Origin: a bacterium
GTDB lineage: Bacteria > Patescibacteriota > Minisyncoccia > Phycocordibacterales > VMGT01
Assembly (NCBI GenBank): GCA_030697645.1
Contig: JAUYPI010000006.1
Location: forward strand, 12,017-76,016
DNA length: 64,000 nt
Direction: 5' to 3'
Positions 9,637 through 15,650 of the stretch are shown here, piece after piece. Made by a program: the position numbers and the translations under genes. The stretch's first letter is position 1; every line of letters starts with the position of its first letter. The notes beneath the pieces were generated by a model. The model was not told where the DNA came from and searched no databases. It worked only from the letters and a program-made list of their open reading frames with translations.

Positions 9637-9772
9637 TTAATTTTCAATGCTCAATTTTCAATCAATTTTCAATGACCCAATTTTCAAACACGACGTCGTA
9701 CCGGCGCCGTCATTAAGTCATTGAAACATTGAAAATTTATTGGAAATTGCAAAATTGAAAATTGAAAATTTC
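9637..9772. repeat. Family-1 palindromic element, copy 2
   Basis: Between rpmJ stop and rpsM ATG. Core CCCAATTTTCAAACACGACGTCG. Confidence 0.8.
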
Positions 9773-9777
9773 GTTCT

Positions 9778-10158
9778 ATGCGTTTATTCGGCATTACCAT
9801 TCCAGAGAAGAAGCGGCTCGATATCGGCCTCACGGCGATCTATGGGGTCGGACGTCCGCGCGCCGGAGCGGTTCTCCGGGAGGCAAAGGTAAACCCGGCG
9901 AAGCGACCGGCTGAGGTTAGTGCGGAAGACGAGGCGCGCATTCGGGCAGCACTCGAGAGCATCAAGCTCGAGGGCGAGCTGCGGCGGGATATAAGCGCAA
10001 ACATCAAGCGCCTCCGCGAGAGCAAATCGTACCGCGGCGTGCGCCATGTGCGGCACCTGCCGGCACGAGGTCAGCGCACGAAAACAAATTCACGCACCGT
10101 CCGCGGTAATGTGCGTAAGACCATGGGATCGGGGAGAAAAAAGGTGGAGAAGAAGTAG
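9778..10158 (+). CDS. rpsM: Ribosomal protein S13
   Basis: 126 aa. Canonical S13 sequence (GVGRPRA..., RGQRTKTNSRT). Confidence 0.9.
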   Translation: MRLFGITIPEKKRLDIGLTAIYGVGRPRAGAVLREAKVNPAKRPAEVSAEDEARIRAALESIKLEGELRRDISANIKRLRESKSYRGVRHVRHLPARGQRTKTNSRTVRGNVRKTMGSGRKKVEKK

Positions 10159-10169
10159 ATCGCTTCATT

Positions 10170-10308
10170 GTTTAATTTTCAATTATCAATTATCAATTTT
10201 CAATCAATTTCCAATGAACCAATTTTCAAACACGACGTCGCCGCCACTCAGTCATTCATTGAAACATTGAAAATTTAATGAAAATTGAAAATTGTAAATT
10301 GAAAATTT
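10170..10308. repeat. Family-1 palindromic element, copy 3
   Basis: Between rpsM and rpsK. 5 left units, core GAACCAATTTTCAAACACGACGTCG, right arm ATTGAAAATT x4. Confidence 0.8.
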
Positions 10309-10314
10309 CGTGCT

Positions 10315-10749
10315 ATGGGCAAAAAACGCATCATCAAAAAAAGCGGCGGGGGTTATGACAGCGGACTTAAATCCCGTGCGCTCTCTCGTGTGGCAAAACG
10401 ACAGATCGAAAAGGGAGTGCTGCATATCCAGTCCACCTACAATAATACGCTCCTCACGCTCGCCGAGGCATCGGGTGCGGTGCTCTGCGCCTCGTCGAGC
10501 GGCGCGCTCGGCTTCAAGGGCGCGCGCAAAGGGACGCCCTATGCGGCGGCAAAGGTCGGTGAGCTTATCGGCGAGAAAGCGGTGCAGATGGGAATGCGAG
10601 ATGCAGACATTATAGTGAAGGGCGTTGGTGCAGGCCGAGAGTCGTCCGTCCGCGGCTTCATTTCGCGCGGGATCAGCATTAGCAGTCTTCGGGATGCAAC
10701 GCCCGTACCTTTCAACGGCCCGCGGCCGCCGAAGCCGAGAAGGGTGTAG
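10315..10749 (+). CDS. rpsK: Ribosomal protein S11
   Basis: 144 aa. Canonical S11 (HIQSTYNNT..., GFKGARKGTPYAA). Confidence 0.9.
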   Translation: MGKKRIIKKSGGGYDSGLKSRALSRVAKRQIEKGVLHIQSTYNNTLLTLAEASGAVLCASSSGALGFKGARKGTPYAAAKVGELIGEKAVQMGMRDADIIVKGVGAGRESSVRGFISRGISISSLRDATPVPFNGPRPPKPRRV

Positions 10750-10752
10750 CAC

Positions 10753-10888
10753 GAAATTTCCAATTTTCAATTTTACAATTTCCAATCAATTTTCAATGTG
10801 TCAATGATGCAATGACGGACGACGTCGTGTTTGAAAATTGGGTCATTGCAAAATTGATTGAAAATTGAAAATTGAGACTTGAAAATTA
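10753..10888. repeat. Family-1 palindromic element, copy 4 (core in inverse orientation)
   Basis: Core reads CAATGACGGACGACGTCGTGTTTGAAAATTGG, the reverse complement of the core in copies 2, 3 and 5. Confidence 0.8.
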
Positions 10889-10909
10889 AGTATACGAGAC
10901 ATCTACTTC

Positions 10910-11545
10910 ATGAAACTCGGACCAAAGTATAAAATTTGTAAGCGTTTAGGTCCCGACGTCTTTGAGAAATGCCAGACGCCGCGGTTTGCGCTGGTCGCGA
11001 GCCGCGCTCCGAAGACGAAGCGAGGTGGAAAGCGAGGCGGGAGGCCGTCTCGAACGGATTACGGCAAACACATGCTTGAAAAGCAGCGTGTGCGGTTTAC
11101 TTATGGCCTCTCGGAGCGGCAGTTTGCGCGCTATGTCAAAGAGTCGGCGCGACCGGCCGGCGCGAAGCCTGCAGAGGCGCTCTACCGGCGGATTGAGTCG
11201 CGTCTCGACAATATCGTGTACCGTCTGTCTCTTGCGCGCACGAGAGCACAGGCGCGCCAGCTCGTCTCGCACGGCCTCATTACGGTGAACGACCGGAAAA
11301 TGAGCAGCCCGTCGTATGCGGTGCGAGTCGGCGAGCGGATAGGGGTCAAGCAGAGCAAGCGCGATCTCGGTGTCTTTGCTTCCCGCGGCCGAGGTGCTGA
11401 AGGAGAAGGCATTGTGATGCCCCCGGCGTGGCTCACGTTCGACGGCGCGAAAATGGAAGGAGTTGTGAGCGCCTTGCCTGCCGCGGAGAATGCCGGAGCG
11501 CAGTCGCTTGATTTGCAGGCGGTGATTGAGTTTTATAGCAGATGA
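10910..11545 (+). CDS. rpsD: Ribosomal protein S4
   Basis: 211 aa. Canonical S4 with S4 RNA-binding domain (SRLDNIVYRLSLARTRAQARQLVSHG). Confidence 0.9.
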   Translation: MKLGPKYKICKRLGPDVFEKCQTPRFALVASRAPKTKRGGKRGGRPSRTDYGKHMLEKQRVRFTYGLSERQFARYVKESARPAGAKPAEALYRRIESRLDNIVYRLSLARTRAQARQLVSHGLITVNDRKMSSPSYAVRVGERIGVKQSKRDLGVFASRGRGAEGEGIVMPPAWLTFDGAKMEGVVSALPAAENAGAQSLDLQAVIEFYSR

Positions 11546-11546
11546 T

Positions 11547-13740: not shown

Positions 13741-14108
13741 CAGCCACTGATCAGACACTCTATACAATCGACGCCCGAGCACAGCGTCTCGGGCGGGTTG
13801 CCGCCGATGCGGCGCGCGTCCTTATGGGCAAACACACGCCCCACTACGAGCGCAATCGGATAAACGGGCAGCGCGTACGCATCGAGCACGCGGCAGCACT
13901 CCAGATTGACGAGCGAAAAAAGAAGCATACAATATATTCGCGCCACTCGGGCTATCCGGGCTCGCTCAAGCGCGTAACGCTCGCCGCGATCGAGACGAAG
14001 CGCGGTCGAGAGCGTGCATACAGCGAGGCGCTCCGTCGGGCAGTCTACGGCATGCTGCCGAAGAACAAGCTGAGGCCGAGGATGATGAAACGGCTTGAAA
14101 TCATATAG
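13737..14108 (+). CDS. rplM: Ribosomal protein L13
   Basis: 123 aa. Overlaps rplQ stop by 4 nt. Canonical L13. Confidence 0.9.
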   Translation: MTATDQTLYTIDARAQRLGRVAADAARVLMGKHTPHYERNRINGQRVRIEHAAALQIDERKKKHTIYSRHSGYPGSLKRVTLAAIETKRGRERAYSEALRRAVYGMLPKNKLRPRMMKRLEII

Positions 14109-14170
14109 AGAAAATGATGTAGAGACACGCAGCAAGCAGAACGTCCTCAGCATCAAAACCTAAATGCCGA

Positions 14171-14288
14171 TAAAATTTTCAATTATCAATTTTCAATTTT
14201 CAATCAATTTTCAATTTCTCAATTTTTCAAACACAACGCCGACGTCGTCCATTGAAAATTGTAAAATTGAAAATTGAAAATTTAAACT
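14171..14288. repeat. Family-1 palindromic element, copy 6
   Basis: Core TTTTTCAAACACAACGCCGACGTCGTCC. Ends 3 nt before the rpsI ATG. Confidence 0.8.
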
Positions 14289-14290
14289 GT

Positions 14291-14713
14291 ATGCCTTCCT
14301 CAACCACCCCCAAACCCAAGAAATCCGACCGCTACATCGAGGCAGTTGGCCGCCGCAAGACGGCGATTGCGCGCGTGCGGATCTCACCTGCTTCAAAAAC
14401 GAACGTCTTGATCAACGACCGCTCGATCGAATCGTACTTTCCAGTGGCCACCCTTGCGCAGAGTGTCCTCTCGCCGCTTGCGCTCGCGCCGTCGGCGCAT
14501 TTTAGCGTAAGCGTCCATGTTGTCGGCGGGGGCATTCGCGGCCAGGCAGAGGCGGTGCGCCACGGTATCGCGCGCGCGCTCACGCTCTCGAGCGCTGATC
14601 TCCGGACCCCTCTGAAGCGCGCTGGATTTCTCACGCGTGATCCTCGTGCCAAGGAGCGGCGCAAATTCGGGCTCAAAAAAGCGCGCAAGGCACCGCAATG
14701 GAGTAAACGATAG
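14291..14713 (+). CDS. rpsI: Ribosomal protein S9
   Basis: ORF track 14252-14713 (start inside the repeat). Probable ATG at 14291. Canonical S9 C-terminus RKFGLKKARKAPQWSKR. Confidence 0.85.
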   Translation: MPSSTTPKPKKSDRYIEAVGRRKTAIARVRISPASKTNVLINDRSIESYFPVATLAQSVLSPLALAPSAHFSVSVHVVGGGIRGQAEAVRHGIARALTLSSADLRTPLKRAGFLTRDPRAKERRKFGLKKARKAPQWSKR

Positions 14714-14725
14714 TTTACTCCATTG
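14696..14725 (+). other. Perfect 13-bp hairpin enclosing the rpsI stop codon
   Basis: CAATGGAGTAAAC-GATA-GTTTACTCCATTG. The stop TAG lies in the loop. No T-run follows. Confidence 0.6.
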
Positions 14726-14764
14726 CGGGCGAAGGGGGTCGGGGAAACTGTAGTTTAGTTCCCT

Positions 14765-14888
14765 CTAAATTTTCAATTATCAATTTTCAATCAATTTTGC
14801 AATGAATCAATTTTCAAACACGACGTCGTCCGTCACTCAGTCATTGAAACGTTGAAAATTCATTGAAAATTGCAAAATTGAAAATTAG
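14765..14888. repeat. Family-1 palindromic element, copy 7
   Basis: Core ATCAATTTTCAAACACGACGTCGTCCGTCACTCAGTCATTG. Confidence 0.8.
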
Positions 14889-14896
14889 ACAATCCT

Positions 14897-15469
14897 ATGT
14901 CCGATACAGATCCAGAAAATGCACGAGACGAAACAATAGATATCATATCGGAAGAGGAAGAGCAGAATTCCTCCGTCCTGATCCAAAAGCTCCGTGGTAA
15001 GTTGAAGCTCTGCGAGGCCGAGCGGCACGAGTACCTCACTGGCTGGCAGCGGGCGAAAGCGGACTTGGTGAATGCACGAAAGGATGAAGAGCGCGAGCGC
15101 GCCACGTTTGTGCGTTTTGCTGCAGAGCGGCTGGTTCGCGACCTCCTGCCGGTGCTCGAGAGCTTTGAGATGGCGTTCTCAAATCCAGGATGGGAGCAGG
15201 CACCACTTGAGTGGCGGCAAGGCATCGAGCACATCCACGCGCAGCTCGTCGCAGTACTTGAGCGCAGCGGCCTTGGGCAAGTACGTCCAGAGATCGGAGA
15301 AAAATTTGACCCTACGCAACACGAATCGGCGGGCGAGACTCCAGTCGAGAGCGCGGAGCAAGATCACGAGATCGTCTCCGTTGTTCGACGCGGCTACCGA
15401 CTGTATGATAAGCTGATACAGCCCGCGAGAGTCATGGTTGGCATATCAGGCGATACGCATGAACATTAA
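14897..15469 (+). CDS. grpE: Nucleotide exchange factor GrpE
   Basis: 190 aa. Coiled-coil N-terminal part and GrpE C-terminal beta domain (VVRRGYRLYDKLIQPARV). Confidence 0.85.
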   Translation: MSDTDPENARDETIDIISEEEEQNSSVLIQKLRGKLKLCEAERHEYLTGWQRAKADLVNARKDEERERATFVRFAAERLVRDLLPVLESFEMAFSNPGWEQAPLEWRQGIEHIHAQLVAVLERSGLGQVRPEIGEKFDPTQHESAGETPVESAEQDHEIVSVVRRGYRLYDKLIQPARVMVGISGDTHEH

Positions 15470-15499
15470 AAGCAGAACGGAACACGCCTCCGAGTCATC

Positions 15500-15650
15500 T
15501 AATTTCCAATTTTCAATTTTGCAATTTTCAATCAATTTTCAATTATCCAATTTTCAAACACGACGCCGACGACGTCCGTCATTGAGTCATTGAAACATTG
15601 AAAATTCATTGGAAATTGAAAATTGTAAATTGAAAATTAAGAAATAATTT
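15500..15650. repeat. Family-1 palindromic element, copy 8
   Basis: Core TCCAATTTTCAAACACGACGCCGACGACGTCCGTCATTGAGTCATTG. Confidence 0.8.

Follow-up and report, generated by a model that had tools for sequence, protein, structure and literature searches.

Intercistronic palindromes of a patescibacterial genome as probable ORF-less relatives of IVS-type stem-loop cassettes

The 64-kb window analyzed here, namely the whole stretch of 64,000 nucleotides from contig JAUYPI010000006.1, carries ten copies and one variant of an A/T-rich palindromic repeat, designated family 1, all of them in stop-to-start gaps of co-directional protein-coding genes. The closest named relatives of the RpoA protein encoded in the window belong to Parcubacteria, Kaiserbacteria, Paceibacterota, and Patescibacteria. 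Both ends of family 1 are common to longer elements that carry a PF05635 gene, and for this reason we group it with the stem-loop elements of the intervening sequence (IVS) type. It appears reasonably probable that family 1 consists of non-autonomous palindromes without an open reading frame (ORF), similar to miniature inverted-repeat transposable elements (MITEs), within a superfamily of stem-loop cassettes that is common among the Parcubacteria (Patescibacteria).

The existence of a dispersed palindromic repeat family, as proposed in an earlier note on this DNA, is borne out by repeat counts, a profile search, and fold predictions. The unit AATTTTCAAT occurs 53 times in exact form in the window, against 0.24 expected from shuffles, and the core TTTTCAAACACGACGTCG occurs ten times with up to three mismatches, against 0.11 expected. 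An nhmmer profile built from an alignment (A1) of ten copies and run over the 64-kb window recovered these ten copies and a variant at 31.2 kb, with no other match in the 64 kb; these are exactly the copies listed in the earlier note. The ten copies are 103–145 bp long, with a GC content of 23–30% and a pairwise identity of 65–89% among the window copies, and in two of them (10749-10891 and 34773-34911) the orientation is opposite to that of the rest. The contrast in composition that the note had described thus holds for the copies, although the mean GC content of the window is approximately 54% rather than the supposed 60%. Each of the ten folds into a single long hairpin, as predicted, with a minimum free energy between −22 and −49 kcal/mol; relative to shuffles, the z-scores range from −3.75 to −6.4. 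The arms, which had been taken for regular decamer units, are instead built from AATTTTC-type units at a spacing of 7, 11, or 14–15 nt. The copies are not assembly artefacts, since a contig of the NCBI assembly GCA_034376905.1 is identical to positions 6395-14708 of the window, and a separate Logan assembly of run SRR26726066 matches positions 11630-14200. Within the identical 8.3 kb lie six copies in full (7579-14283) and the beginning of a seventh, and the Logan contig ends within two copies, as a repeat would lead one to expect.

The relationship to IVS-type elements emerged from metagenome loci in which the two arms lie several hundred bases apart. In locus L189 (the same sequence as L257, from Wildermuthbacteria) and in L186, the arms enclose an ORF of about 120 aa that matches PF05635 (E = 6e-16), the family named 23S_rRNA_IVP or S23p and described as ‘four helix bundle protein’, which is related to Avd. 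Arms of like units flank the PF05635 gene in L186, L189/L257, and L251/L248. The full-length form comprises a left array of AATTTTC(AAT)-type units, the PF05635 gene of about 120 aa (hereafter the IVP gene), and an inverted array of units. The ATG of the IVP ORF is that of the CAATG in the last left-arm unit, and its first codons read ATG ACA CAA TTT TCA AAC AC. The stop codon is followed immediately by the right arm, which begins with GTGTTTGAAAATT in L186. The window copies retain both arms and the first seven or so codons (CAATG ACC CAA TTT TCA AAC AC), and the gene body is replaced by a short GC-rich palindromic tip, ACGACGTCGT. Since the core CAATGACCCAATTTTCAAACAC of the copy at 9633-9776 corresponds to the ATG and the first seven codons of the IVP gene, the window copies resemble MITE-like versions of an IVS-type stem-loop element that lack the ORF. 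An alignment (A4) of three window copies and five metagenome miniature elements on both ends of two full-length elements contains 50 invariant columns, including CAATTTTCAATCAA and AATTTTCAAAC, and approximately 330 nt of the ORF body are missing in the miniature forms. The core had been described as non-coding and the element as matching no repeat family. The former statement has to be amended by the remnant of an ORF start in the core, and the latter is superseded by the shared ends and by the wide distribution described below, although no Rfam family was matched at the gathering score.

The PF05635 construct was also found in a Nealsonbacteria genome and its relatives and in a Yonathbacteria contig, and two other contigs contain an IVP cassette with somewhat different units. 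The IVP gene is sense-oriented in each of the six independent contexts, where it stands between two co-directional genes and fills the stop-to-start gap. A/T-rich arrays of units of about 7 nt occupy the flanks of all six, the unit sequence varying by lineage. These arrays are inverted between the two sides in most contexts; L266 differs in having a complete miniature element upstream and a repeated right arm. The IVP protein family is both conserved and very large, and a homologue search yielded at least 8000 proteins. The best 120 of these are 69–100% identical, and many lie on contigs shorter than 2 kb, as expected for repeats that break assemblies; the named homologues come from Yonath-, Nealson-, Wildermuth-, and Taylorbacteria. 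At L257:3390-3440 (the same sequence as L189:8440-8500), the only in-frame start of a downstream pilin-like gene lies inside the right arm, so that the repeat units encode its leader peptide (MKIVNCKLKIQNTG|FTLIEV).

Family 1 is widespread in Parcubacteria metagenomes and not limited to one genome. A metagenome scan with a pattern of one arm unit and the start of the core, CAATTTTCAATN{4,24}TTTTCAAACAC, matched at least 120 stretches, on contigs of 16–61% GC, many of them from one groundwater-type sample. Most matches exhibit the full architecture, in which left units, TTTTCAAAC, a short GC-rich centre, GTTTGAAAA, and inverted units follow one another, and the contigs with this architecture have GC contents of about 30–58%. 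Among 75 miniature elements taken as profile matches with a score of at least 40, 47 lie between co-directional, nine between convergent, and four between divergent genes, and two lie inside (doubtful) ORFs. The distance from the stop codon to the element shows a sharp peak at −6 to +10 nt. The neighbors are diverse housekeeping genes, including those for HSP70, MraW, enolase, PGK, ATP synthase, aldolase, S20, L4, and S7, and ribosomal or chaperone genes are not clearly enriched beside the elements compared with non-adjacent genes of the same loci. The confinement to ribosomal-protein and chaperone operons is thus a feature of the window and not of the family. The grpE|dnaK junction is also occupied by family-1-like copies in two metagenome loci (L193 and L153). 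In E-value mode, Rfam returned generic miRNA-hairpin models alone, far below threshold, and no matches were found in viral contigs or in phage and plasmid collections. A scan of genome collections with the 18-nt core TTTTCAAACACGAYGYCG proved to use too short a pattern: the listed matches were single chance ones in unrelated taxa, and only two of the retrieved loci contained even one AATTTTCAAT. At L146:1606-2358, a family-1-like miniature element lies directly upstream of a gene for an RNase III homologue. The rnc leader of E. coli has an autoregulatory hairpin, and the likeness between the two arrangements may be coincidence.

In the window, eight copies are concentrated within 8.1 kb, where they fill eight of the 14 junctions of a cluster annotated with Pfam as unk418-GlxA-like-infA-rpmJ-rpsM-rpsK-rpsD-rpoA-unk185-rplQ-rplM-rpsI-grpE-dnaK-dnaJ (Table 1). 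The junctions free of family 1 are GlxA-like|infA, infA|rpmJ, rpoA|unk185, unk185|rplQ, rplQ|rplM, and dnaK|dnaJ, and the remaining two copies occupy tuf|rpsJ and rplD|rplW. The 3' end of the copy lies within 22 nt of the downstream ATG in eight of the ten cases, and the 5' end lies 0–13 nt from the upstream stop codon in five. No Shine-Dalgarno sequence is visible in the element-bearing gaps of the window.

Table 1. Positions of family 1 copies, related hairpins, and the rpoA promoter in the window.
Feature	Position	Strand	Junction	Remarks
Family 1 copy, short form	7579-7681	+	unk418|GlxA-like	unk418 is a conserved unknown ORF ending at 7520; GlxA-like ATG at 7690
Family 1 copy	9633-9776	+	rpmJ|rpsM	Core CAATGACCCAATTTTCAAACAC equals ATG and first codons of the IVP ORF
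Family 1 copy	10169-10313	+	rpsM|rpsK	Profile end 10313 is 1 nt before ATG 10315; last GAAAATTT unit stops at 10308, 6 nt ahead of this ATG
Family 1 copy	10749-10891	-	rpsK|rpsD	Inverted core; end TTTCGTGCTA overlaps rpsK stop TAG
Family 1 copy	11544-11683	+	rpsD|rpoA	Begins at rpsD stop codon; followed by rpoA promoter
Family 1 copy, short centre	14168-14283	+	rplM|rpsI	Ends 7 nt before ATG 14291
Family 1 copy	14760-14895	+	rpsI|grpE	Last unit ends at 14888, 8 nt before ATG 14897
Family 1 copy	15498-15641	+	grpE|dnaK	
Family 1 copy	34773-34911	-	tuf|rpsJ	Inverted core
Family 1 copy	37480-37618	+	rplD|rplW	4 nt past stop codon, ~5 nt before ATG
Family-1-like variant	31204-31345	-		TTCCAA/TTGGAA units; core CAATGCATCAAATCTCAAACACG; in tip of another hairpin
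Composite element	31122-31387			Outer arms of GCAAAAC/CAAAGCG units enclosing the 31204-31345 variant
AGCTTTT/AAAAGCT-unit hairpin	13324-13386		unk185|rplQ	Weak fold, z −1.1
AGCTTTT-unit hairpin	17598-17712		dnaK|dnaJ	z −2.8
AGCTTTT-unit hairpin	35319-35441		rpsJ|rplC	−56 kcal/mol, z −5.8
ACATTTG/CAAATGT-unit inverted repeat	38028-38110		rplW|rplB	Weak fold, z −1.2
Further intercistronic hairpin of like build	9427-9511			
Full-consensus sigma-70 promoter for rpoA, TTGACA-N16-TATAAT	11693-11720	+	rpsD|rpoA	Just 3' of the family 1 copy, outside the element

Family 1 is accompanied by other hairpins of like build, in which tandem units of about 7 nt, a GC-rich centre, and inverted units follow one another. 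Their unit sequences (AGCTTTT, ACATTTG, and TTGGAAATT) differ, and the window therefore holds several sister hairpin families, not one. At 31122-31387, an existing GCAAAAC-unit hairpin has taken up a family-1-like element at its tip, and the resulting composite folds as a single uninterrupted stem of about 120 bp (−100 kcal/mol, z −8). Relative to the histidine-kinase and FIST genes, which lie on the minus strand, the inserted variant is sense-oriented. The family of the outer arms (GCAAAAC/CAAAGCG) is also present at rpsI|grpE and grpE|dnaK in the related locus L243.

The gene cluster is syntenic in four relatives, and their junctions reveal how the elements come and go. In the Kaiserbacteria CG10 locus L246 (RpoA identity 65%), most junctions that bear family 1 in the window measure 1–5 nt and contain no hairpins, the exceptions being 10 nt at unk|GlxA, 27 nt before rpoA, and 65 nt at rpsI|grpE. 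L245 (67%) has gaps of 1, 8, 24, 32, 77, and 87 nt, and of 193 nt at grpE|dnaK, without any family 1 element. In L244 (79%) and L243 (88%), the corresponding junctions carry hairpins of other unit families, including CAAAAGT/CAAAGCT, GCAAAAC, and TAGGCNC, with z-scores of −4.2 to −6.3. Since the junctions of relatives are empty and tightly packed, the gain of the elements took place in this lineage and at the DNA level. Taken together with the nested insertion, the comparison further shows that their turnover is quick and that stop/start junctions and hairpin tips are the sites that they favor or, alternatively, the only ones in which they persist. Their insertion sites, used in either orientation, are the gaps between the stop and start codons of co-transcribed genes and the tips of hairpins already present.

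These features can be combined into a mechanism by which such insertions are tolerated. Once transcribed, the insertion would fold out of the transcript as an A·U-rich hairpin of 40–55 bp and could thereby be tolerated at junctions. Cut or uncut, the hairpin would bring the upstream stop codon and the downstream start codon together, mimicking the 1–5 nt junctions of relatives, and this juxtaposition would account for the toleration of large insertions between genes that are tightly coupled elsewhere. Given the precedent of the rRNA IVSs, the hairpin is probably cut by RNase III, as in the 23S rRNA, and the operon mRNA would be either cut between cistrons or functionally intact, rather than disrupted. 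Indirect pointers to such cleavage are the long A·U duplex and the RNase III homologue encoded on the element-bearing contig L146. The IVP protein is the sole candidate factor encoded by the elements, and it presumably acts in trans on the shared arms. A tentative extension, to which we assign distinctly less weight, is that the PF05635 gene and the inverted arrays of ~7-nt units constitute an unrecognized class of mobile elements, with hairpin tips and stop/start junctions in transcribed DNA as its targets. Recognition of the units would fall to the pentameric four-helix-bundle protein, the classical rRNA IVSs would be members that landed in rRNA, and the miniature forms would be mobilized in trans. 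Spread through RNA excised by RNase III is a further possibility, suggested circumstantially by the role of Avd as a reverse-transcriptase cofactor.

Several observations weigh against the assignment of family 1 to the IVS-type cassettes. The 64-kb window contains no IVP gene, no RNase III gene, and no plausible mobilizing enzyme, and a full-length cognate element is assumed to reside in this genome. To our knowledge, no four-helix bundle of 120 aa acts as a recombinase. Inspection of the ten pairs of flanks revealed no target-site duplication and no shared direct repeat, and an all-against-all BLAST search for filled and empty sites found no such pair at nucleotide resolution, giving only other palindromes and an IS200/605 insertion. 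Because the pairwise identity among the window copies is no higher than stated above, they do not represent a recent burst. The conserved GC-rich tip of the miniature elements (ACGACG..CGTCG) is their own and shows no relation to the ORF. The gene could accordingly have come into a hairpin tip as cargo, rather than the miniature elements being deletion products. Finally, hairpins maintained as RNA should show sense-strand mismatches biased to G·U over A·C. Stem mismatches, counted as G·U:A·C, amount to 17:17 for the 11 copies of the window and to 67:67 for 46 miniature elements from metagenomes, and these equal counts give no sign of selection for pairing at the RNA level.

The equality of mismatches also bears on the alternative that survives best, in which the hairpins are selected by the host as intercistronic RNA structures that process or stabilize the transcript or set how strongly cistrons are translated relative to one another, in the manner of REP/BIME sequences or RNase III sites, their appearance as a repeat family being secondary. 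This idea draws on the hairpins of different unit families at the corresponding junctions of the two closest relatives, the location in highly expressed operons, the proximity of most 3' ends to start codons in gaps devoid of a visible Shine-Dalgarno sequence, and the sense orientation of nine of the 11 window copies, a bias compatible with chance. We nevertheless consider it unlikely. The relatives at 65–67% RpoA identity run the operon without hairpins and with gaps of mostly 1–5 nt, the metagenome miniature elements are oriented 15 sense to 15 antisense relative to transcription, and their neighbors are diverse housekeeping genes without clear enrichment over controls. Compensatory changes were found in one of 26 pairs of the window stems, where covariation is uninformative because the stem is almost invariant. 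The lack of a G·U excess and the random orientation point to a selfish palindrome at the DNA level rather than a selected RNA structure, and the mismatches show that the stems decay by mutation without RNA-specific constraint. Between families the unit sequence changes completely and the two arms stay complementary, and thus the common property is palindromic symmetry itself, not one sequence. We regard the RNA hairpin as a consequence of the structure of the element and probably as the reason for its tolerance.

An ordinary MITE of an insertion sequence (IS) that encodes a transposase of the DDE or Y1/RAYT type, with the PF05635 gene as a passenger, is improbable. The small size, the multiple copies with inverted repeats, and the empty sites in relatives would suit this alternative, as would two transposase sequences. 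One is a Y1 transposase gene of the IS200/IS605 type (PF01797; L248:2376-2972), which abuts exactly the left edge of the Nealsonbacteria IVP cassette. It has its own GC-rich hairpins and is missing from the otherwise identical loci L251–L253, and it is therefore a separate insertion. The other is an apparent frame-shifted IS30-like transposase fragment in the window near 61.7–62.1 kb (61686-62110; …TYDNGLE…, then …INSRPMRCLRYRTPNEA… in another frame), recognized by eye and without a Pfam hit. In the six full-length contexts, no transposase gene lies between the arms, where the PF05635 protein alone is encoded, and instead of a discrete terminal inverted repeat each arm consists of short units arrayed over about 50 bp. 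With no target duplication and no transposase, the copies do not correspond to a known MITE or IS flanked by terminal inverted repeats and duplications, a match to which would have overturned the earlier description.

Still less probable is the alternative that the arms are arrays bound by a host or element protein on duplex or cruciform DNA, serving nucleoid organization or outward promoters, with incidental hairpin potential. The inner units keep their primary sequence on contigs of 30–58% GC, the units lie partly 11 nt apart, and the absence of a signature of RNA-level selection would fit, as would outward promoter-like matches to TTGAAA-N17-GAAAAT (9 of 12 positions) in some copies. These matches are weak, are confined to the arms of a few copies, and do not make a promoter role convincing; the one consensus promoter (11693-11720) lies outside the element. 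Moreover, the unit sequence differs completely between families with left/right complementarity always kept, and the elements are missing from related genomes. Consensus-like −35 (TTGACA) and −10 (TATAAT) sequences were also seen by eye in the rpsD|rpoA gaps of L243 and L244, where this promoter again comes just 3' of the hairpin. An assembly or chimera artefact, which the tendency of AT-rich repeats to break or mis-join short-read assemblies and the Logan contig ends inside two copies might suggest, is of negligible probability, given the identical 8.3 kb of the independent NCBI assembly, the mutual divergence of copies flanked by intact genes, and the related elements on more than 100 unrelated metagenome contigs.

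Some other features of the window were recorded alongside these elements. About 43 nt following the rpsI stop codon (TTTACTCCATTGYGGGCGAAGGGGGTCGGGGAAACTGTAGTTT, 14714-14760) are conserved between the window and the 88% relative L243, and in the rpsI|grpE gap the differing hairpin families start downstream of this block, which is possibly a small structured or terminator-like motif. A 185-aa ORF without a Pfam match (12766-13323) lies between rpoA and rplQ, 3 nt past the rpoA stop codon; it is missing in L243, L245, and L246, whose rplQ comes directly after rpoA. The ribosomal-protein operon of the S10 type is interrupted by a 750-nt gap containing small ORFs between rplC and rplD (36060-36809), and a NUDIX gene takes the place of rpsS after rplB (39016-39534). 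Two GC-rich palindromic elements (103-244 and 25750-25839) bounded by GTCATTGCGAG ... CTCGCAATGAC represent a different repeat family. Palindromes with these boundaries give four matches in the window against 0.05 expected, and resemble a palindrome present in many bacterial metagenome-assembled genomes.

If family 1 does belong with the IVS-type cassettes, elements known only as oddities of rRNA genes appear to be spreading among the ordinary operons of the ultra-small Parcubacteria. Thousands of cassettes and miniature forms would then exist outside rRNA in this group, at precisely definable junctions, and the binding partner of IVP, the insertion target, and neutralization by RNase III would become testable. 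At these junctions, empty sites, replaced families, and nested insertions serve as natural experiments. The elements also break short-read assemblies of genomes of the candidate phyla radiation (CPR), separate genes that are translationally coupled in relatives, and, in L257 at least, supply a downstream gene with its start codon and leader peptide.

Comparison with known systems places family 1 between established classes. Repetitive extragenic palindromes (REP/BIME) share its extragenic position, often between co-transcribed genes or after stop codons, its multiple copies in both orientations, and the lack of a target duplication, and their RNA hairpins can affect the fate of the mRNA. REPs are 20–40 nt long and GC-rich, whereas family 1 consists of tandem units and has the length and low GC content given above. 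No RAYT gene lies between the family 1 arms, the associated gene encoding a four-helix-bundle protein, and the sole Y1 gene seen is an independent insertion; an identity with REP/BIME-RAYT systems was rejected on these grounds of size, composition, and gene content. Bacterial MITEs include Correia/NEMIS in Neisseria, RUP and BOX in pneumococcus, ERIC, and Nezha in cyanobacteria, and Correia elements are cut by RNase III. Family 1 resembles them in its similar size, its non-coding, multi-copy inverted repeats, its intergenic and co-transcribed position, the empty sites in relatives, and the pairing of miniature and full-length forms. It differs in that no TA or other target duplication is present, the full-length partner has no transposase, and the whole arm is a repeat array. 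In heterocystous cyanobacteria, the STRR sequences likewise place tandem 7-nt units in intergenic arrays, and a genome contains several unit families. STRRs are described as direct arrays and are not known to form paired inverted arrays around a conserved core or a PF05635 gene, as family 1 and its full-length relatives do. The Avd protein of diversity-generating retroelements is a member of the superfamily (PF05635) to which the protein cargo of the full-length elements also belongs, and it binds nucleic acid and reverse transcriptase, but no reverse transcriptase, template repeat, or variable repeat adjoins the IVP genes examined. A CRISPR array, already dismissed in the earlier note, and a TIGR-Tas array are both rejected, as the units are contiguous without spacers, the copies are dispersed, and no cas or tas genes were found. 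An intrinsic terminator was also rejected, with no terminator-like site within any copy.

The closest parallels are the rRNA IVSs. IVSs and the S23p/IVP proteins have been known since about 1990, and their origin, movement, and protein role are still unexplained (PMC4990558). In Coxiella, the IVS is a 428-nt ‘selfish’ stem-loop in helix 45 of the 23S rRNA, whose terminal inverted repeats form the stem and whose loop contains an S23p (PF05635) ORF, with two or three tandem heptamers, variable between strains, directly upstream of the ATG; RNase III excises it within the stem, and IVSs replace the tetraloop of an existing helix (PMC4990558). In CPR rRNA genes, PF05635 ORFs and short ORF-less insertions occur at IVS sites (PMC11270868). 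Family 1 shares with rRNA IVSs the stable stem-loop bounded by inverted repeats. A sense PF05635 gene in the loop, as in Leptospira and Coxiella, is found in the full-length forms with like arms (L186, L189/L257, and L251); the window copies keep the ATG and about seven codons. Family 1 and its full-length relatives also share with rRNA IVSs the tandem heptamers directly before the ATG, as in Coxiella, the coexistence of ORF-bearing and short ORF-less forms (the Salmonella and Yersinia types being short and ORF-less) with a sporadic distribution among relatives, and, at the nested copy at 31.2 kb, the insertion in the tip of a pre-existing hairpin. In contrast, all 11 window copies lie between protein-coding genes, not in helices 9, 25, or 45 or in the 16S rRNA, and the 64-kb window contains no rRNA gene. 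Family 1 is also present in many copies per region (ten in 64 kb), its arms extend over about 50 bp of repeated units compared with an IVS stem of about 28 bp, its miniature forms occur in both orientations, and the RNase III excision known for IVSs is predicted here by analogy. Thus, family 1 works like an IVS and looks like a MITE and is a strict member of neither, because it lacks the location in rRNA on the one hand and a target duplication and a transposase-encoding partner on the other. The literature search found no paper describing family 1 and none joining four-helix-bundle/IVP genes, arms of heptamer arrays, and intergenic miniature elements in CPR bacteria. Family 1 is therefore regarded as a variation on the IVS type, in which such cassettes and their miniature derivatives colonize intercistronic junctions in protein-coding operons of Parcubacteria.

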